Source: an uncultured Bacteroidota bacterium (GTDB lineage Bacteria > CLD3 > SB21). Taken from it: a DNA stretch of 64,000 bases. The notes under the pieces were generated by a model that was not told the origin of the DNA, made no database searches, and saw nothing but the letters and a program-made list of their open reading frames with translations. A program made the translations under genes and the position numbers. The stretch is taken from contig CAZJBS010000010.1 in assembly GCA_964544475.1 (NCBI GenBank), positions 9,961 to 73,960 on the forward strand. The letters run 5' to 3'. Of this stretch, positions 55,964 through 64,000 are shown one piece after another. Position 1 is the first letter of the stretch, and every line of letters begins with the position of its first letter.

Positions 55964-56132
55964 GACGCGGGCAACTCCTTCATGGAACGTATGTTTTCAA
56001 AAGACGCGCTAAAGTAGTCGTTCCCGCGAAGAAAATAAAGGAGAATGTGCCGCGCCGGCGTAAAAAACGCCGCGCGGAGTTTCCCGGGCGGCGCGAAAAA
56101 AAAGTGAAACGATTAATTCCTTGACAACCATC

Positions 56133-56162
56133 GGAGCGTGCGCTAACTTGGAACAGCTATCG
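56133..56162 (+). promoter_or_regulatory. Weak sigma-70-like promoter candidate for the first island gene
   Basis: TTGACA, then a 17-bp spacer, then TAACTT. The -10 is poor, so this is a low-confidence call. Confidence 0.2.
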
Positions 56163-56278
56163 CTATCGGGTTATCGTATGAATTCCAGAACAGACTATTT
56201 CAGCGTCGAAATTTTTCACGTCCGGCGGCAGGCTATGGCCGGCCAAGCCAGAACAGCCAGGAACAAAATAACCGACAT

Positions 56279-57049
56279 ATGTCGTCTATCACGCCCAAAA
56301 TGAGAAGATATACGACATGGATCATTCGTTTATGCAATAGTTATCCGACATGGCCCTCGACGAAGAAACACATGAGCGGAGATACTAAACCTGGTGTTCC
56401 TCATCAAACTCTTGGGGACGCAGCCCACGCGCTTCTGAAAGGAACTATCGGCAGTGTTCCGGTAGGCGGTGCTCTTGCTGCGGAATTTTTTAGTTTCGTA
56501 CTAAAACCTCCCATGCAGAAGCGAATGGAGGACTGGATGGCCGACCTGGTTCAGAGGCTGACCGAGATGAAGATGTCGATCGACGATTTGCAAGAGAACC
56601 AGCGTTTCGTCACAAATACACTGCAATCTCTGCGTATTGTTCAAATGACACACTCACCTGAGAAGCTCAGAGCCTTACGGAATGCAGTTCTCAATTCAAT
56701 CGCGCCACCGCCTTTCGACGAATCCTTGGAACAGGTGTTCCTTTCGTATGTTGATTCTTTCACTGATTACCATATTAGGTTTCTTGCTATGATCGCGGAA
56801 CCGAATTGGCCGATCAAACAACGCAAGGTGGTTACCTCACCTGACGCAAATCTTTATGAAATCATCTACCATCACTTTCCGCAGCTGCAAGGATCATCGT
56901 TTGTCACTCAAGTCTTTCAGGATTTGAACGCGCGTGGGCTGCTGGAACCCAACTGGGACCGTGGCTTTAAGCTAAGCTGGAGTAGTGGATATCCGGTGTT
57001 GTCTCCACTCGGAAGATCGTTTCTCAAGTTCATTTCGGAGGCTGAGTAG
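56279..57049 (+). CDS. Hypothetical protein (first gene of the lower-GC island)
   Basis: 256-aa ORF with alternative in-frame starts at 56300 and 56372 (MSGDTKPGV...). The 56279 ATG lies inside a perfect palindrome, cgacatatgtcg. No family recognised. Confidence 0.5.
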   Translation: MSSITPKMRRYTTWIIRLCNSYPTWPSTKKHMSGDTKPGVPHQTLGDAAHALLKGTIGSVPVGGALAAEFFSFVLKPPMQKRMEDWMADLVQRLTEMKMSIDDLQENQRFVTNTLQSLRIVQMTHSPEKLRALRNAVLNSIAPPPFDESLEQVFLSYVDSFTDYHIRFLAMIAEPNWPIKQRKVVTSPDANLYEIIYHHFPQLQGSSFVTQVFQDLNARGLLEPNWDRGFKLSWSSGYPVLSPLGRSFLKFISEAE

Positions 57050-57067
57050 ATGTCTCGGGCCACGTCC

Positions 57068-57234
57068 GATAACATGCGTGCACACGATTGGTCGCCCCGA
57101 CGCGAGCGTCAGATGCCCCCGGCCACGATTTTTGTGCGTCGGGGCTCCCCTACGGCGCACCGCGCGGAACGAATTGAAAACAAATTCATTGATACCGCTT
57201 GTGCGCCGCAGCGTGTGCACGCAGACCGTTATGT
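57068..57234 (+). repeat. attC-like imperfect palindromic element 1
   Basis: 5' end GATAAC-a-tgcgtgcacacg and 3' end cgtgtgcacgca-gacc-GTTATGT. The terminal 12-mers are inverted repeats. It contains an internal 10-bp hairpin (gccccgacgc / gcgtcggggc). It lies in the gap after the first island gene. Confidence 0.45.
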
Positions 57235-57243
57235 GCAATGCCG
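57089..57243 (+). repeat. 155-bp direct repeat, copy A (about 88% identical to 62580..62733)
   Basis: Aligned by eye: tggtcgccccgacgcgag[c/t]gtcagatgcccccggc ... cgaattgaaaacaaattcattgataccg ... cagcgtgtgcacgc ... gttatg[t/c]gcaatg, with a few substitutions and one indel. Confidence 0.8.
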
Positions 57244-57301
57244 CCTAAAAATATGAACAAACCGCACGCCATCATTCTCAACATACATAGGAGAACGTAA
57301 A

Positions 57302-57811
57302 GTGAAATCAAAGACGAACGAGGTTGTCAAGAAACTTCGTGAACTCAACACGATAATAAAATCACTGGATCCTTCTATCCGGCCGCAGTCTTTTGAATTG
57401 CTCCGTCCAGTCTTCTTCAGCGATGAGCCTGAGCACGAGCGAGATCAACGAGACCAGCAAACAGAGACGGCTGGCAAGTCAACAGGCACTCACAACAAAG
57501 AAAAGTTTTTCGGGTCGTTTGATCACAAAAAGCCCAGTGATAACGTCTTCTTGATTGCAGCATGGCTCTACTCCCAACACGGAGTTTTTCCACTCACATC
57601 AGATACTATTAAGGCGGTGGCGGACGAAACAGGTGTCACTGTTCCCGGTAGGCCAGATATGACCCTCAAAGCGGCTCAAAAAAAGGCAAAGCACCTATTT
57701 TCCAAACAAGGCGCTGGTTATAAACCAACTGTTCACGGTGAGACGTTCCTCAAAGACACATATCGAGTCAAGAAAGGAAACAGCCCCATACCAAAGGAGC
57801 CTGAGAATTGA
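57302..57811 (+). CDS. Hypothetical protein, upstream partner of the HEPN-motif protein
   Basis: 169 aa. Its stop overlaps the next gene's start by 4 bp. The C-terminal roughly 70 aa (FLIAAWLYSQHG ... LTSDTIKAV ... GAGYKPTVHGETFLKD) resemble the N-terminal domain of the downstream protein, so the two share a domain. Confidence 0.5.
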   Translation: MKSKTNEVVKKLRELNTIIKSLDPSIRPQSFELLRPVFFSDEPEHERDQRDQQTETAGKSTGTHNKEKFFGSFDHKKPSDNVFLIAAWLYSQHGVFPLTSDTIKAVADETGVTVPGRPDMTLKAAQKKAKHLFSKQGAGYKPTVHGETFLKDTYRVKKGNSPIPKEPEN

Positions 57812-58551
57812 CAATAGTCGAGTTTCTACATCCAATACTGAGATCACCGCACCGGGACCTTTGTGTTGCGGCTCTGTATTATTCGAAAAGATTCCAACAG
57901 TCTGATTCATTAACCGTCGATCAAATTCGTTCGTTGCTTAGAAGAGCTCGTGTTCCAAGTGTTAATAACATCAACATAGCAGACGTGCTTGCTAAATCAG
58001 CTCCTCATGTCGACAGTGCTGGCAAGAAAGGAAAAGCTTTTCTTTGGGCGATCACTTCGTCAGGCGAAAAGCACATACGAGCCTTGCTAAATATTCCTGA
58101 GGTCGATATTGCAACGGTCCATGAGGTCGGCACACTTGAGCGCCTTATCAACTCCATCGGTGATCCTGATGTGGCCAACTATCTAACAGAAGCAGTCACT
58201 TGCCTACGTGTTGACGCTCTTCGTGCCTCTATCGTGTTTCTGTGGGCTGGCGCCGTTCGTACCATTCAAAAGGAAATGATCGATCTTGGCGCGTCCTCAG
58301 TTGACACCGCCTTAAAGAAATTCGACCCCAAATCCCGGTCGATCAAAGGGCTAGACGACTTTGCGTATGTCAAGGATTCGACAGTGCTTCTAGCAGCCCA
58401 AGAACTTGCCATCTTTGACAAGAATGAGCGGTCCACACTCGAGGAGGCTCTGAACTTAAGGAACAAATGTGGTCATCCCAGTAAGTATCGACCTGGCCCG
58501 AAAAAGGCTGCAAGTTTTATTGAAGACGTCACAACCATCGTTTTTTCTTGA
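57808..58551 (+). CDS. HEPN-motif protein (predicted RNase, toxin or abortive-infection type)
   Basis: 247 aa, apparent TTG start. C-terminal R-N-x-x-x-H motif (LNLRNKCGHP, about nt 58459-58476) inside a predicted helical domain, matching the HEPN Rx4-6H signature. N-terminal domain is shared with the preceding gene. Confidence 0.5.
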   Translation: MTIVEFLHPILRSPHRDLCVAALYYSKRFQQSDSLTVDQIRSLLRRARVPSVNNINIADVLAKSAPHVDSAGKKGKAFLWAITSSGEKHIRALLNIPEVDIATVHEVGTLERLINSIGDPDVANYLTEAVTCLRVDALRASIVFLWAGAVRTIQKEMIDLGASSVDTALKKFDPKSRSIKGLDDFAYVKDSTVLLAAQELAIFDKNERSTLEEALNLRNKCGHPSKYRPGPKKAASFIEDVTTIVFS

Positions 58552-58580
58552 GATGGCGTGCGGTTGATAGCGGCACTGCA

Positions 58581-58724
58581 CATAACAGGCCGCACTACGA
58601 CGTTCGCTCATTTGATATGGCGATAAGAAAGCTGTGCAAGAAACAAAAGTGCTCACTCAATGGCTAACCATTCCGCTATTGCTCCATTCGTTAGCTACTG
58701 CGTAGTGCGGCCGGAACGTTAGGC
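58581..58724 (+). repeat. attC-like imperfect palindromic element 2 (best-preserved copy)
   Basis: 5' CATAAC-a-ggccgcactacg and 3' cgtagtgcggcc-ggaac-GTTAGGC. The 12-bp arms are perfectly complementary. The 3' end is a canonical attC core sequence GTTRRRY (GTTAGGC), and the 5' end is an inverse-core-like ATAAC. Confidence 0.5.
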
Positions 58725-58752
58725 GGCATGTCCACGAATCTGAGTATTACAT

Positions 58753-59340
58753 ATGAACCTATTCACAACTGAAGCCCTGCGGCTATTTGTTGTCTTTTTC
58801 GTACCTGGCTTCATTTCAATGCGTGCTTTCTCCCTACTAGTCGCGTCTGAAAGACATGATTTTTCAAAATCATTGGTCGAAGCAATCGCATTTAGTTGCT
58901 TAAACTTTGCTCTTCTTTACTGGCCCATGAGTGTCATCCATTCGAATGATTTTGCTCATCAGTACCCAATACTATACTACCTCAGTGCTCTGGGTATTCT
59001 GTTAGTTGCACCGTGTGCTTGGGCATGGTTGTTCTATCGAATTATGATTTCTGACTGGTACTCGAAACGATTTCGAGACCCTTACCCAACTCCATGGGAC
59101 AGCTTTTTCGCTCGCGGAGAAGCATGTTGGGTAGTTATCCACCTAAAGAGTGGCAGGAAGATTGGTGGTATTTATTCTGGACGCTCTCGCGCATCAGCTT
59201 ATCCGACCGAACAACAAGTCTATCTCGAAGAAGTGTGGGAGGTGGATCAGAAGACCCAACGCTTTCTACGTAAGAAGAATCGGACAGCTGGACTTATAAT
59301 CAGCAGATCAGAGATGACTCACATTGAGTTCTACAGTTAA
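58753..59340 (+). CDS. Hypothetical membrane protein (3 TM helices plus C-terminal soluble domain)
   Basis: 195 aa. Hydrophobic segments LRLFVVFFVPGFISMRAF, AIAFSCLNFALLYWPMSVI and LYYLSALGILLVAPCAWAWLFY. No family recognised. Confidence 0.5.
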   Translation: MNLFTTEALRLFVVFFVPGFISMRAFSLLVASERHDFSKSLVEAIAFSCLNFALLYWPMSVIHSNDFAHQYPILYYLSALGILLVAPCAWAWLFYRIMISDWYSKRFRDPYPTPWDSFFARGEACWVVIHLKSGRKIGGIYSGRSRASAYPTEQQVYLEEVWEVDQKTQRFLRKKNRTAGLIISRSEMTHIEFYS

Positions 59341-59354
59341 GAAAGGATCCGCCA

Positions 59355-59525
59355 ATGGCAGACGAGACGAAAAACACGAATTCCTCTAACGTTCCGAAAT
59401 CGGACGAAAACAAGGGCTCAATCAAGGCGGGACGAGATATCAAAGAGAGTTACAGCCCACGCAACGAGCTCGATACTTCTAAACCGCCGCAGGGAGATGG
59501 TACATCAAAAAAGGACGATAAGTAA
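59355..59525 (+). CDS. Candidate 56-aa hydrophilic, low-complexity small protein
   Basis: ATG 14 nt after the membrane protein stop, preceded by gaaaggatcc (Shine-Dalgarno-like). It encodes MADETKNTNSSNVPKSDENKGSIKAGRDIKESYSPRNELDTSKPPQGDGTSKKDDK, predicted disordered. Not in the ORF track (shorter than 60 aa). Confidence 0.25.
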   Translation: MADETKNTNSSNVPKSDENKGSIKAGRDIKESYSPRNELDTSKPPQGDGTSKKDDK

Positions 59526-59540
59526 GAGCGTGGACTCGCC

Positions 59541-59716
59541 GCATAACAGGCGAGCACACGTTCGCTCGCGGCGTGCTCATTCCCGTCGGGTGCACGCCGC
59601 TTCGCACACGGCGCACCGACGATTTTCGATTGGAGATTATGAATAGATTTGATCTATGAAGAACGATGAAACCAAGATTGGCGGGCGCCGCGTCGTGTGC
59701 TCGCGAACCGTTATGC
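59541..59716 (+). repeat. attC-like imperfect palindromic element 3
   Basis: 5' GCATAAC-a-ggcgagcacacg and 3' cgtgtgctcgcg-aacc-GTTATGC. The arms are inverted repeats. It shares an internal 11-mer, acggcgcaccg, with element 1. Confidence 0.45.
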
Positions 59717-59755
59717 GCAGTTTGCCCGACTGATCACAACCACCAAGGTGCTAAA

Positions 59756-62098
59756 ATGAAACACTTTGCAGAAGTACTTCAAACTCTCGGCGCGAGTAAA
59801 ATCGAGCCACTTTCTGAAACTCAGCATTGGGACTTCTGGAAGGCAGTCTACTCGACTCCAATCTCCGAAGTGAGCGGCTACTATCTATATTTGAAATCGA
59901 GCTGTCCTTGGAAAGAAGGGAACAACAGGGCAAATTGGGACACATGGCAAAAACCTTCAAAGGGAAACTACGAAATTATTGTAACGCCGGCCAGTGACTT
60001 CATAAGGAAGCCCAGTCAAACTATTGCAGCCTTCAAGGGAACTCGCGTGAGAACATCGAAGGAACTCTTGCTGAACAATTTTGTGAAGAGCCTCACACTG
60101 GAAGAAATAATATCAGAGGAAAATTTCATCGACCCGACACTTGAACTTGAGAACGGTCGCGTGAGCCAGGATACCACACACTTTCTCATCTCTTGGATCA
60201 AGGGACGGGATAGTGCAACCAAAGGTGTATCCATTGCAGCTTTGGTTGCTGATGGCGGCGTTGGCAAAACCACAGTGTCTCGTGTACTGAGTCGATCTCT
60301 CCATGAGGACGATCCGACTGTTATCCCTATCCTCATAGAATCCGATCAATGGCGGCATCTGCTTAACACGCCTATTTCGCTTAGCAACCTTTGGGACTTG
60401 GCCATCTCACGGCGCTTTCAGAATGCCGCTAGACTGTTGTCTAATGAAATGGCTTTTCGCGTTCTCGTAAGGGAAGGACTCTTTGTAATCATCTTCGACG
60501 GTTTTGATGAACTTTGCGTTAATTCTTATGCTGTGTCGCGTCCCAAAGAAATTATCGACGAGCTTATAACCCTCCTGTCGCCTGAAGATGAGCCCGTACA
60601 AGCAAAAATTGTATTAACAGCCCGCAGCACGTTCTGGGAGTCATTGGCAGATGAAATCGAGCTTAAGGACATCGAGACATTTTACCTTCGGGGGTTCGAT
60701 AATGATCAACGCAAGAGCTATTTCGACAAAACGCTAACCACTCACGAAGAAAGAGACATTGCAAATCGTTTGTCTCGACAGATTAGTGGAGCCATGTACG
60801 AAGGCATCAAACCTGAAGATCACAATTACGAAAGACCTTCCGGAGTACCATTTATCTTGAGCCTAATCGCCCAGTACGTCCGGGGCAGTGTCCATTTGAT
60901 TGAGGTAAATCCATACATGGCGGACCCGTTGGAGCGTCTCCTCGAAGATATCTGTCGTCGAGAAAACCTTCGACAATCACTTGACATCGAGCCCACAAAA
61001 CAATTAGAGCTTTTTGAGGAACTCTTCCGGGAATATCAGGAATCAATCCAACTAACCGATTTGCAAATGTATCTTGACGTAATCTGCAACATCAACGACA
61101 AAGAGACCGCCAACCGGTTCACGAACCATGTTTTCCTAACTCGCACTGAAAAAGACACTTTTGGGCCGCGCTATGAAGTCCTCCGAGTATACTTTATAGC
61201 ACGCTTCCTTGCCAAAGGCCTGCTTGAGCTGACGACAAAAACTCCTCGACAACAAATCGCACGGTTGCTGGCAAAGAACAGCACCGGAAAGACCCAGGTC
61301 ATCGACTGGCTTATCTTGCAATTGCGTAATTTGGAACAAACAACCCTCATAAGGTCAATACACCACGCACTAGCCATTATTCGCGATCAAGATAACCGTT
61401 CTACGCTCTCTCAGTCTTCTTCGGCGATTTTCCATGTTGTTTCCAGCCTCATCTCGGGCGGCGACAAAGATGAACGCACTCGTCTACTCTGTGATTTCTA
61501 TAATATCGATAGAAGCGGCACAGTTGTTTTCAAGGCAGTTGTATTCGCAGGTGTGGTCCGGTCCTTCAGTTTTCGTGACGCAATCTTCGAGAAATGTGAA
61601 TTTTACGATGTCGAGTTTAAGAATTGCACTTTTGGCGATGCTTCTACATTCCGAACATGTAGCTTCTACGGAAATCTTAAATTTACTAATTGTTCAAATG
61701 CGGGCTCGATAAAAACACAGATCTGCACTTTTTCAAGGGAATCAGAGTTCGCACTTGATGTCATTAGAAACTCACACTCAAGAATGGAGCTAAAACGTTC
61801 TTTCGCAGAAGAAGCATTGTCCCGATCCCTTCGCAAGTTTCGAAAGGACAATCGGTTTATTCCTATCCAGTACGAGCACCGCAAGACTGGATTCAAGCCA
61901 GGCAACCCATATAACGAGACAGTGTGGCAGGAACTTGAACGAGCTGGGCTTATTCACTCTCATCACATATCTGGAGTCACCGGCGGAGGTCTCAACATTG
62001 TCGACGACAAGAACGTGCGACGAGAAGTGTCGTCCTTCCTGGACAATGGCGTACTTGGCAATTTGTTGACCAACGTGCTAACAAAAATGATCACATAA
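59756..62098 (+). CDS. STAND/NACHT-like P-loop NTPase with C-terminal pentapeptide-repeat region (antiphage-sensor-like architecture)
   Basis: Start placed at MKHFAEVLQ (ATG 59756, AAGGTG Shine-Dalgarno upstream), about 780 aa. Walker A ALVADGGVGKTTV (about nt 60254-60271). Walker B hhhhDGFDE (FVIIFDGFDEL, about nt 60497-60511). A long helical middle region. Pentapeptide-like repeats (AVVFAGVVRSFSFRDAIFEKCEFYDVEFKNCTFGDASTFRTCSFYGNLKFTNCSN, about nt 61580-61770). The N-terminal roughly 160 aa are of unknown function. Confidence 0.65.
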   Translation: MKHFAEVLQTLGASKIEPLSETQHWDFWKAVYSTPISEVSGYYLYLKSSCPWKEGNNRANWDTWQKPSKGNYEIIVTPASDFIRKPSQTIAAFKGTRVRTSKELLLNNFVKSLTLEEIISEENFIDPTLELENGRVSQDTTHFLISWIKGRDSATKGVSIAALVADGGVGKTTVSRVLSRSLHEDDPTVIPILIESDQWRHLLNTPISLSNLWDLAISRRFQNAARLLSNEMAFRVLVREGLFVIIFDGFDELCVNSYAVSRPKEIIDELITLLSPEDEPVQAKIVLTARSTFWESLADEIELKDIETFYLRGFDNDQRKSYFDKTLTTHEERDIANRLSRQISGAMYEGIKPEDHNYERPSGVPFILSLIAQYVRGSVHLIEVNPYMADPLERLLEDICRRENLRQSLDIEPTKQLELFEELFREYQESIQLTDLQMYLDVICNINDKETANRFTNHVFLTRTEKDTFGPRYEVLRVYFIARFLAKGLLELTTKTPRQQIARLLAKNSTGKTQVIDWLILQLRNLEQTTLIRSIHHALAIIRDQDNRSTLSQSSSAIFHVVSSLISGGDKDERTRLLCDFYNIDRSGTVVFKAVVFAGVVRSFSFRDAIFEKCEFYDVEFKNCTFGDASTFRTCSFYGNLKFTNCSNAGSIKTQICTFSRESEFALDVIRNSHSRMELKRSFAEEALSRSLRKFRKDNRFIPIQYEHRKTGFKPGNPYNETVWQELERAGLIHSHHISGVTGGGLNIVDDKNVRREVSSFLDNGVLGNLLTNVLTKMIT

Positions 62099-62131
62099 GG
62101 GATTTATAATGGCCGTGCGGTCGGGCAAACT

Positions 62132-62341
62132 GCGCATAACACGCGCATAAACCGTTCGTTCGGGCACTTGCTTTTGTGCGGTACCTGTGTCCCAATCTTT
62201 TGGGTAGTCAATCTGTAAACATTATGACCATTCAACAAAAAGTGCCCTCACCAACCATGCACGCGCCGCAAACAACAGCAGTTGAAGACTTTTATCAAAG
62301 GCGGCTTGTGCGTGGCTGCGGTTATACGCCGGACGTTAGGG
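62132..62341 (+). repeat. attC-like imperfect palindromic element 4
   Basis: 5' GCGCATAAC-acgcgcataaaccg, where the motif is tandemly reiterated, and 3' cggttatacgc-cggac-GTTAGGG. The arms are roughly complementary (gcgcataaaccg versus gcgtataaccg). Confidence 0.4.
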
Positions 62342-62579
62342 TTCCGTCGCACGACTTTTTTTCTTTCTCGACTTTGTTGGGGCTATGATGTAATTTGATC
62401 CTGTAAGTTCATTTCTTGGGGAGTAGCAAGTGGCTCTGGGTTCAGTTCTTTCGTGCATTTCAAGTCTCGTTCAGGAAAACGAATACCGCGCTCGTGCGAT
62501 TCGTACGGGGTTGAACGGTCATACCAGTTGCCGAGATTTCGATTGGGATTCCCGAATTCCTCCTCCCCGTGCCACGTCC

Positions 62580-62733
62580 TGGTCGCCCCGACGCGAGTGT
62601 CAGATGCCCCCGGCTGCGATTTTTGTGCGCCGGGCTTCCCTCGGCGCACGGCGCGGATCGAATTGAAAACAAATTCATTGATACCGATTGTGCACCGCAG
62701 CGTGTGCACGCGTGACGTTATGCGCAATGACTG
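62580..62733 (+). repeat. 155-bp direct repeat, copy B (about 88% identical to 57089..57243). A decayed attC-like element that keeps its 3' end.
   Basis: 3' end cgtgtgcacgcg-tgac-GTTATGC is retained. The 5' arm is degenerate (ccgtgccacg versus cgtgcacacg) and the ATAAC is lost (gaattc). The internal hairpin of copy A is disrupted here (gcgccgggc). Confidence 0.8.
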
Positions 62734-62755
62734 CGACCTGAGTCCCAACTAACTT

Positions 62756-63367
62756 ATGGCACCCTATCAGAGAATTCCCATATGGGAGAACCGGCTGCGC
62801 GTGAAGCGTCTTTGGCAGTTTCGAGAGGCTCTGCAACTGTACTTCGCCGCTTATTCAGCCTCGCGAGTATCGTTTAGCGATTCTCACAGACACCATCGCG
62901 TAACTGTGAACTTACAAATACACTCCGTCTATTCCATGGTTCAAGATGCAGGAATTGATACTTCGTTTTCTGGGCCTCATCGGTCATCATCTGTCACTCT
63001 TGATCGAAAGGCGGATCTTGTTCTAGACGTATTCTCTTTGGTAGATCTCAACATCGATCCCCAGTACCTTGGAGATTGTATTGTAAGAGCTATTGGTAAG
63101 TACAATGACGACCGCGCAAGAGCCGTTTTGCGAACGATCAATCCGTTGTTCTGGGCGGGTAAGCTGGTTGATGCCGTTCTTGATCTGCCATTGAAACTTT
63201 TGCGGAGCTTCGGTATCAAAGTACCCAAAATTGAAGACACACTTGCCGGCAGAGTTATTGGCGGACTGCTCAAGTCTGTGACTTATCTGGCCGCCTTTCT
63301 GACTGTCGCCGAAAAGCTGGGCTATCTTGAGACATTCAAAGGTTTTCTTAAATCTGCGTCACCCTGA
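62756..63367 (+). CDS. Hypothetical protein (203 aa)
   Basis: ORF about 20 bp downstream of repeat B. No family recognised. Confidence 0.5.
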   Translation: MAPYQRIPIWENRLRVKRLWQFREALQLYFAAYSASRVSFSDSHRHHRVTVNLQIHSVYSMVQDAGIDTSFSGPHRSSSVTLDRKADLVLDVFSLVDLNIDPQYLGDCIVRAIGKYNDDRARAVLRTINPLFWAGKLVDAVLDLPLKLLRSFGIKVPKIEDTLAGRVIGGLLKSVTYLAAFLTVAEKLGYLETFKGFLKSASP

Positions 63368-63436
63368 AACTGAGGGCGCAGTCAATGCGCATAACACCTT
63401 AAAAGAGTTCGAAGTCAATAGAAAAAGCCCTCCCGT

Positions 63437-63460
63437 GGCGACCGGGTCGCCTATTTTGTT
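63437..63460 (+). terminator. Rho-independent terminator downstream of the 62756..63367 gene
   Basis: ggcgacc-g-ggtcgcc perfect 7-bp stem followed by tattttgtt. It lies inside a candidate fifth palindromic element that is bounded by GCGCATAAC at 63387 and a weak GTTATCC at 63670. Confidence 0.45.
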
Positions 63461-63711
63461 GGCTTTTTGCTTCGATAACCGATGGGCCGACGCCTGGCAT
63501 GTCTTTACGAATGGTGAAGCAAGTTGCATCGACATCCATGACGATACGAATTGAAAATACGATTGAACCCATGGCCGAGACTTCACCCATGCCCTGCGCG
63601 AAGCCAAGGAATCCTCAAGGTAGGATTTGTCAGATGCGGCTTGCAGGGTACGGCGTGTATCGGCGGGACGTTATCCGACACCCCCAAAACAGTGCTCAAA
63701 AGAGGTATCAA

Positions 63712-64000
63712 ATGAATTTGCCAGAAGATCGTAATCGCACTTTATCCCAGTTTCGAGAAGGGCCGATGCTACTCGACAAGACTGTCAGCGATCTGCAAGA
63801 CTCCGAATTGGATCTCATTCCTACCGAAGGTGGATGGTCTATTCGACAGATCGTCCATCACATTGTGGATGGGGATGATATTTGGAAGTTTGGTATCAAG
63901 ATGGCCATTGGTAACGAACAGGCTGAATTTTCACTGGAATGGTACTCCTCACAGACGCAAGATACTTGGGCTGATCGATGGGCGTACACCCAAAGATCAA
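63712..64000 (+). CDS. DinB_2 (DinB/YfiT-like) family protein, 5' portion (runs off the window end)
   Basis: ATG at 63712. MNLPEDRNRTLSQFREGPMLLDKTVSDLQDSELDLIPTEGGWSIRQIVHHIVDGDDIWK contains the metal-binding His region typical of DinB_2. No stop before the window end. Confidence 0.55.
   Translation, partial: MNLPEDRNRTLSQFREGPMLLDKTVSDLQDSELDLIPTEGGWSIRQIVHHIVDGDDIWKFGIKMAIGNEQAEFSLEWYSSQTQDTWADRWAYTQRS

Follow-up and report, generated by a model that had tools for sequence, protein, structure and literature searches.

The DNA analysed here, referred to throughout as the window, is a stretch of 64,000 nucleotides of contig CAZJBS010000010.1 from an uncultured Bacteroidota bacterium. Next to its ychF gene lies an island that runs from position 56340 to at least 63676 and consists of a head-to-tail array of six gene cassettes, or seven when a DinB_2 gene at the window end is counted. 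Each cassette is laid out as one or two genes followed by a structured site of 145-290 nt, and these sites, named E1 to E6, together with the enzyme that may act on them, are the subject of this report.

Between 53.7 and 55.7 kb the GC content is 0.59-0.64, and beyond 56 kb it is 0.44-0.54, which agrees with the fall at about 56 kb noticed in the initial annotation; the means are 0.55 across 1-55963 and 0.482 across 56184-63676. From 56279 to the end of the window, every plausible gene lies on the forward strand, also as first described, and the same gene calls are obtained in an independent Logan assembly (L084) that is identical to window positions 57193-62385. The cassettes and sites are listed below in order along the array, with the pairing of the site arms and with bit scores from the covariance model R1, which is described in the next section.

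56340-57228, + strand: cassette 1, core GTTATCC at 56340-56346; open reading frame (ORF) 56372-57049, 225 aa, no known family (no Pfam match)
57067-57234, + strand: E1, site of cassette 1, CGATAAC-A-TGCGTGCACACG ... CGTGTGCACGCA-GACC-GTTATGT; arms 12/12; R1 54.6 bits
57229-58718, + strand: cassette 2, two ORFs overlapping by 4 nt, 57302-57811 (169 aa) and 57808-58551 (247 aa)
58580-58724, + strand: E2, site of cassette 2, ending in GTTAGGC; arms 12/12; R1 127.6 bits
58719-59710, + strand: cassette 3, DUF6338 membrane protein gene 58753-59340 and 56-aa ORF 59355-59525
59541-59716, + strand: E3, site of cassette 3; arms 11/12; R1 45.5 bits
59711-62335, + strand: cassette 4, gene for a NACHT/STAND NTPase with pentapeptide repeats, 59756-62098, 780 aa
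62134-62341, + strand: E4, site of cassette 4; imperfect arms, about 9/12 with an indel; R1 37.5 bits
62336-62717, + strand: cassette 5, ORF-less remnant whose site, E5, is a copy of E1 without R'' and the left arm
about 62580-62729 (homologous part), + strand: E5, decayed site of cassette 5; R1 10.8 bits
62718-63670, + strand: cassette 6, ORF 62756-63367, up to 203 aa, no known family
63389-63676, + strand: E6, degenerate or composite site, GCATAAC at 63389-63395 and GTTATCC at 63670-63676; R1 11.5 bits for 63473-63676
63671-64000, + strand: probable cassette 7, DinB_2 gene from 63712, running off the window

Recombination sites

Sites E1-E4 share one layout, in which (G)CATAAC (R''), 1 nt and a 12-nt arm form the left end and the complementary 12-nt arm, 3-5 nt and GTTAKGS (R') form the right end; the terminal architecture and the coordinates initially given for these four elements were reproduced to within 1-2 nt. 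The end motifs in the window are CGATAAC, ACATAAC or GCATAAC with GTTATGT, GTTAGGC, GTTATGC or GTTAGGG. They have the form of the RYYYAAC and GTTRRRY ends of integron attC sites; GCATAAC is one position off RYYYAAC, and the wider family includes exact GCCTAAC/GTTAGGC pairs. The bottom strand of E1 folds at a predicted -52.5 kcal/mol. E2 represents the commonest subtype in metagenomes, with near-identical sites in contigs L105, L114, L118 and L124.

The first description placed a palindrome in every gap between genes. Elements do occupy gaps such as 58551-58753, but there is none at 59340-59355, because both ORFs there sit in one cassette. Of the two poorer copies then proposed, the decayed one indeed shares about 90% identity with E1 across some 150 nt, with a 21-nt deletion (GATAACATGCGTGCACACGAT) that takes out CATAAC and the left arm, but the homology begins at 62580 and not at 62480. 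The weak copy, placed at 63387-63676, has two genuine ends, but its inner arms do not pair; a terminator-like hairpin lies within it. The exact 26-mer common to E1 and E5 had no match in the genome or metagenome contig collections, and an Rfam gathering scan of the whole window gave none either.

Related sites were retrieved with a motif-only pattern that required no pairing. It returned 25 metagenome contigs, about 19 of them with arms pairing at least 9/12, and up to 8-9 co-oriented sites per array are present in L106, L109, L112, L113 and L121. Alignment of 42 bottom strands with RNAalifold gave 29 consensus pairs, 23 of which carry compensatory changes; the consensus consists of TAAC/GTTA, a G.T pair, a bulge of 3-4 nt, a 12-bp stem of many pair types and an internal covarying hairpin. 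The G.T pair adjoining the R box is found in 39 of the 42 sites (bottom strand; A.C on top). A conserved bottom-strand motif, TTGAGYGAGC, covaries with CGARCG adjoining the 12-bp arm, and the two are possibly in contact through tandem G.A pairs. The motif (A3 columns 125-133 and 222-226; for example 58640-58655, top strand GTGCTCACTCAATG) is kept at GC contents of 0.31-0.64.

The covariance model R1 was built from the 42-site alignment, from which E4 was absent. In the 64-kb window it matches the island only, clearly at E1-E4 (for E4, E about 1e-8) and weakly at E5 and E6 (about 11 bits). It gave 91 matches in 177 kb of array loci and none in 1.39 Mb of unrelated control DNA. A search of IMG/VR with the site pattern produced one match, which the model did not confirm.

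Evidence for cassette mobility

Each cassette pairs, through its first 17-20 nt, with the sequence just ahead of its own downstream site, not with the adjoining upstream site. In cassette 1, GTTATCCGACATGGCCC at 56340 is complementary at 15/17 positions to the 17 nt ending in R'' of E1, which puts the first cassette start at 56340 and therefore makes 56372-57049, rather than a frame from 56279, its ORF. The start of cassette 2 pairs with 58552-58593 (inverted repeats of 24 nt plus 14 nt), and that of cassette 3 matches the sequence before R'' of E3 at 17/24. Around the NACHT gene of cassette 4, 59710-59730 and 62120-62140 are complementary at 21/21, and for cassette 6 its start (62717-62743) and the stretch through GCATAAC (63369-63395) are complementary over 27 nt at 89%. 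In a set of 35 cassettes, taken from the window and from related contigs, positions 8-24 score 10.1/17 against the complement of their own pre-R'' sequence and 5.7/17 against other cassettes. Such pairing is predicted for the head-to-tail integration of circles cut inside the palindrome core.

When the sites were reconstituted in their circular form, the bottom-strand folds came out 3-19 kcal/mol more stable than in the array form. At position 11 of the resulting outer stem, the bottom strand has a G.T wobble in 29 of the 35 cassettes and a Watson-Crick pair in one. The bottom strand is also more stable than the top in 4/5 of the window cassettes, and single-stranded folding of the bottom strand, as in integrons, is likely on the basis of these computed structures.

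Sequence junctions are consistent with the same picture. Contig L099 repeats window positions 62715-63531 with 100% identity, but the cassette in front of them is another one and ends in another member of the site family; the identity begins at AC|GTTATGC. L098, from another sample, has the order of the window. The sample of L099 also holds an identical ychF contig, and a cassette content that varies beside a fixed ychF flank, as the initial annotation envisaged, is borne out to that extent. No contig spans the ychF-array junction, however, so the variant in L099 is not shown to be linked to the window locus. Among related arrays, L115 and L125 share the same integrase and carry different first cassettes after GTTATG, L126 and L127 part after the GTTA of the first attC, and L128 and L133 part after CAAACGTTA. 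The switches fall within AC|GTTA, which corresponds to the attC crossover between G and TT of the core.

These observations also bear on the possibility that the palindromes are repetitive extragenic palindromic (REP) sequences, bacterial interspersed mosaic elements (BIME), miniature inverted-repeat transposable elements (MITE), transcription terminators or hairpins with a regulatory role, in an operon-like island gained by horizontal transfer. The elements do sit after genes as G+C-rich hairpins, E1 and E5 are repeats with 90% identity, and the hairpin inside E6 resembles a terminator. Left unexplained by any such origin are the pairing of the first 17-20 nt of each block with its own downstream element, the identical blocks found behind different neighbours with switches exactly at GTTA, and the start of arrays at a conserved site after an integrase gene, described below; we consider this origin very improbable. 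To judge from its site pairing and junctions, the island arose as a cassette array through site-specific recombination at G|TTA, and the co-oriented array with one attC-like site per cassette that was recognised at the outset is upheld by the same two lines of evidence.

Integrase genes in related contigs

In contig L115, a gene for a 301-aa tyrosine recombinase lies directly upstream of cassettes of this site family and is co-directional with them, and a conserved short hairpin ending in GTTA follows its stop codon. The same succession of integrase, short site ending in GTTA and co-directional cassettes is found in lineages whose integrases are at 100%, 80%, 65% and 44% identity to that of L115. 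L126 and L127 (80% identity to the L115 integrase) have the same site followed by 4-5 cassettes and diverge after cassette 1. L128-L135 (65%) have the same layout with differing first cassettes after CAAACGTTA, and several of these contigs end exactly there. In L140 (44%, GC 0.33), three 95-nt sites of the same design lie downstream of the gene. The short hairpin and GTTA right after the integrase stop, followed by differing first cassettes, are a candidate attI of these platforms.

The L115 integrase is 36% identical to IntI1; the IntI1 query is 100% identical to the real IntI1. Its best PDB match is VchIntIA (155 bits), aligned in two stretches that skip IntIA residues 179-240, and it aligns to Pyrococcus abyssi XerA in one continuous stretch (138 bits). 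Against NCBIfam it scores 231 bits with the integron integrase model TIGR02249, below the cut-off of 265, and 224 bits with the XerA model NF040815, above the cut-off of 220. In a multiple alignment the whole enzyme family lacks the segment at about 205-245 of IntI1, as XerC does, and keeps the catalytic residues and an IntI-like RSPLD tail. The residues by which VchIntIA contacts the extrahelical bases of the Vibrio cholerae repeat (VCR), namely K209, Y210, W219, P232, H240 and H241 (PMC3053210), fall in the absent segment. The domain-less family is large, with 7288 matches at E < 1e-40, and its named members come from metagenome-assembled genomes of Bacteroidota and Ignavibacteria.

The enzyme's match to the XerA model speaks for another reading, that of Xer-dependent modules, such as the plasmid dif (pdif) modules of Acinetobacter plasmids or integrative mobile elements exploiting Xer (IMEX), in which host XerC/D or XerA would act on double-stranded dif-like sites. 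The enzyme resembles XerA, XerC and XerD in length and domain layout, and the arm next to the cleavage point resembles the XerC arm of dif: the outer arm TTATGCGCA coincides in sequence with 9 nt of GGTGCGCATAA, the XerC arm of Escherichia coli dif. The modules, however, are built on a 28-bp duplex of two 11-bp arms and a 6-8 bp spacer and alternate in orientation. There is no 28-bp site here; the substrates are long folded palindromes whose two GCATAA arms are separated by 130-280 nt and connected by a covarying stem, and all sites have one orientation throughout. The enzyme gene heads a cassette array with its own attI-like site and does not lie at the chromosome terminus, and, unlike XerA, its product is closest to IntI in score (155 vs 138 bits) and shares the C-terminal RSPLD motif with IntI1. 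We regard Xer modules as an exceedingly improbable explanation.

Comparison with canonical integrons

The island resembles sedentary chromosomal integrons, and groups of attC sites without an integron integrase (CALINs), in its co-oriented and mostly promoterless-looking cassettes and in imperfect palindromes with RYYYAAC-like and GTTRRRY ends. A sigma-70 promoter scan returned fewer sites than in shuffled sequences, and none usable. In both, the G|TT crossover makes the opening bases of a cassette part of its own site. Strains differ in cassette order, assemblies are interrupted at the array, and there are ORF-less cassettes and, in L115, a reverse-oriented toxin-antitoxin cassette.

The inner geometry of the sites is different. 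In a canonical attC the central spacer is unpaired and the L box carries T-N6-G extrahelical bases, whereas here a single nucleotide after R'' and 3-5 nt before R' lead into a paired 12-bp arm. The folded bottom strand of a canonical attC presents two extrahelical bases on one side (PMC3053210). In the present family the R box is followed by the G.T pair, a bulge of 3-4 nt on the 5' (R'-L') side and 12 paired, covarying base pairs, and there is no extrahelical T-N6-G pair because the 12-bp arm is fully paired. Further differences from canonical integrons are that pairing continues for about 12 bp beyond the R box and includes a conserved wobble at position 11, that the core sequence of the site is conserved across contigs of GC 0.31-0.64, and that the associated integrase lacks the IntI-specific domain and is oriented with the cassettes. 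The early statement that the elements match integron attC sites is therefore correct for the R boxes and the crossover and not for the inner geometry, while its alternative suggestion of a distinct cassette system fits best, with sites lacking T-N6-G and a related integrase lacking the IntI-specific domain.

A rival reading is that of an ordinary CALIN, with canonical attCs served by a standard IntI elsewhere in the genome or beyond 64 kb and with the domain-less enzyme as a side branch or coincidence. R boxes that fit or nearly fit RYYYAAC/GTTRRRY, the GCCTAAC/GTTAGGC members of the family and the crossover at G|TT are all as expected of it. In two class 1 integron loci, moreover, the top matches of R1 are the true attCs of arr-3 and aacA4, on the bottom strand; these reach only 7-12 bits (E 0.1-2) and lack the 3-nt bulge, as the arr-3 attC aligned to R1 shows. 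This reciprocal test was preferred to a surrogate canonical attC model made from class 1 cassettes, as a model trained on short sites would penalise long loops regardless of geometry. Complete integrons have been reported in Chlorobi, Ignavibacteriae and Salinibacter (PMC9024848), and CALINs far from any intI are common (PMC4889954), both of which favour the ordinary reading. It has to face the weak canonical matches and their missing bulge, the absent T-N6-G pair with its fully paired arm, a domain-less enzyme in every platform found with this site family, and the lack of a canonical IntI in any of the retrieved loci; we judge it unlikely.

In the 'inverted integrase' integrons, a group that includes Treponema, Chlorobium and others, the integrase is likewise transcribed with the cassettes and the insertion site lies just downstream. 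The enzymes of this group are reported to be true IntIs that have the extra domain, which those described here lack. For typical Spirochaetota IntIs the orientation is reverse (PMC9668308). By the requirement attributed to Messier and Roy 2001 where it is cited in PMC9668308, a complete integron has an adjacent intI whose product carries the IntI-specific additional domain; the window holds no integrase, and the enzyme of the related platforms is without that domain. A CALIN is taken as two or more attC sites that have no integron integrase in a range of about 4 kb, and the island has four strong and two weak sites in 7.3 kb, as scored by the family model and not by IntegronFinder. The literature searched describes no domain-less IntI-like enzyme that serves cassette arrays, although it is incomplete and this is no proof of novelty.

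Proposed mechanism

Circular cassettes would enter and leave the array through a tyrosine recombinase whose strand exchange would take place at G|TTA of GTTAKGC. The site would fold as single-stranded DNA, most likely as the bottom strand. Its outermost stem, of about 12 bp and with the conserved G.T at position 11, would exist only in the circular cassette; inward of it would follow the 7-bp R box, the bulge of 3-4 nt, the covarying 12-bp stem and a conserved branched core. The cognate enzyme is probably a domain-less, IntI/XerA-related recombinase of about 300 aa, that is, one without the extra domain specific to IntI. The array in the window would be serviced by such an enzyme in trans, or may no longer be active. 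As a whole, this explanation, an orphan integron-like array with a domain-less cognate enzyme, appears to us likely.

Several observations weigh against it. No tyrosine recombinase or pseudogene of one was found in the whole 64 kb, as had been stated for IntI-like recombinases, and this holds for intact and decayed genes alike; the array is therefore an orphan (CALIN-like) copy next to ychF. The link to an integrase comes from four lineages on metagenome contigs, none of them of this organism, and a canonical IntI elsewhere in the genome is possible. R1 detects no attI-like site at the left end of the array (55964-56339). The degeneration of E5 and E6 means that the array may in part be decaying. 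Outside the two conserved positions, finally, G.T and A.C are balanced (21 vs 20).

The defining feature of an integron is its integrase, whose unique extra domain recognises the extrahelical bases in the folded attC, and current software calls an integron only where this IntI domain is present. It is conceivable, and we put it forward tentatively, that the family described here is a hitherto unrecognised sister class of integrons, widespread in lineages of the Bacteroidota/Ignavibacteria type and in others, in which a domain-less recombinase takes up cassettes by way of folded sites, with the bulge and the G.T at position 11 of the outer stem as the code for asymmetry. If so, the extra domain would not be required for cassette recombination, there would have been an ancestral or parallel route from Xer to integrons, and some of the CALINs in genomes without IntI would be accounted for. 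Two questions are addressed in this way, namely why many CALINs occur in genomes without a recognisable IntI and how integrons arose from Xer-like recombinases. The family offers a testable case, as it combines covarying sites and natural junctions with a candidate enzyme that is without the domain and sites that are without the domain's ligands. Should the enzyme be active on these sites, the definition of the integron would have to widen, arrays in uncultivated lineages would become interpretable, and a simpler recombinase-hairpin pair would be available for engineering. Should a canonical IntI serve them, they would still be a new attC subtype and a cassette reservoir in this lineage.

Left flank of the array

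The stretch between ychF and the first cassette has the following entry:

55964-56339, no strand: flank between the ychF start and cassette 1; non-cassette, without attI-like or attC-like feature

With filters off, R1 gave no match in this flank; its sequence is conserved as far as 56200-56210 or further in related strains. This ychF, or a copy at least 90% identical to it, is carried by more than 27 Logan contigs, and every one stops within 56183-56210, at one of three positions, 56183, 56200 or 56210 (L001-L003, L088-L097). Their uniform stop is consistent with a variable region, but the stops fall 130-160 nt upstream of the first cassette start at 56340, and the stretch between the stops and 56340 holds no site-like feature. 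The motif GTTATCG at 56171 was discarded as a start of the array; its G is a T in a related strain, and only the 7-nt core pairs with E1.

Among the best 80 loci kept from GTDB representative genomes, the closest relatives of YchF are 52-61% identical and spread over many phyla, so there is no close GTDB representative for a comparison of synteny. Upstream of the ychF start, at 56045-56100, two G+C-rich hairpins flanked by A runs are kept in a related strain, one stem with paired substitutions (GCGG...GGCG vs ATGG...CCAC).

Cassette cargo

The genes were at first described as defence-type cargo, which the analysis does not sustain. PADLOC recognised none of the eight cargo proteins, so that the label was a guess; the only pointers are a generic NACHT domain in the cassette 4 protein (Pfam 1.5e-8, with Pentapeptide_3 at 1e-4) and an R-x4-H motif in the 247-aa protein of cassette 2, which also has a precomputed match to PF27235 (AF_1680). 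The product of 58753-59340 in cassette 3 matches Pfam DUF6338 at 9.4e-37. Cassette 5 has no convincing ORF, and its site copies E1 including the pre-R'' bases GCCACGTCC, so that it looks like a chimera or a deletion product.

In related arrays, cassettes of L130 (5022-8128) and L126 (6406-8102) include multi-gene sets, with genes for an unknown protein, a PP2C phosphatase and a protein kinase, and one with an AAA_15 ATPase divided over two ORFs. The first cassette of L115 (1536-2041), also present in L106, is a reverse-oriented Phd/YefM-YoeB toxin-antitoxin pair, an arrangement often seen in large chromosomal integrons. L112 (249-2541) has runs of very short ORF-less cassettes in which the same site is repeated with 60-125 nt between sites.

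The DinB_2 gene at the window end (Pfam 8.5e-10) has a GC content of 0.47. Homology with L086 begins directly after GTTATCC (63670-63676), and the gene is therefore probably a seventh cassette. No record of the exact DinB_2 protein of the window was found, and the sequence could not be extended past 64 kb through its homologues, which at 83-85% identity occur in a fixed recX-dinB-panD context in genomes of 47% GC. These genomes were rejected as a continuation of the window, as the rest of their sequence shares nothing with it. Cassette 1 and the DinB_2 cassette share their first 11 nt, GTTATCCGACA (56340-56350 and 63670-63680), beyond the conserved core, which may reflect the way in which the block was inserted. 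In L086 (6140-6200 and 6700-6760; also in L085), a DinB_2 homologue has recX on one side and a bPH_7 gene on the other. ATTATGCACCACCCC, similar to a cassette start, precedes it and a 45-nt GCTAAC...GTTAGC hairpin follows it, so that it may represent either a single cassette that has become fixed or a gene from which a cassette arose.

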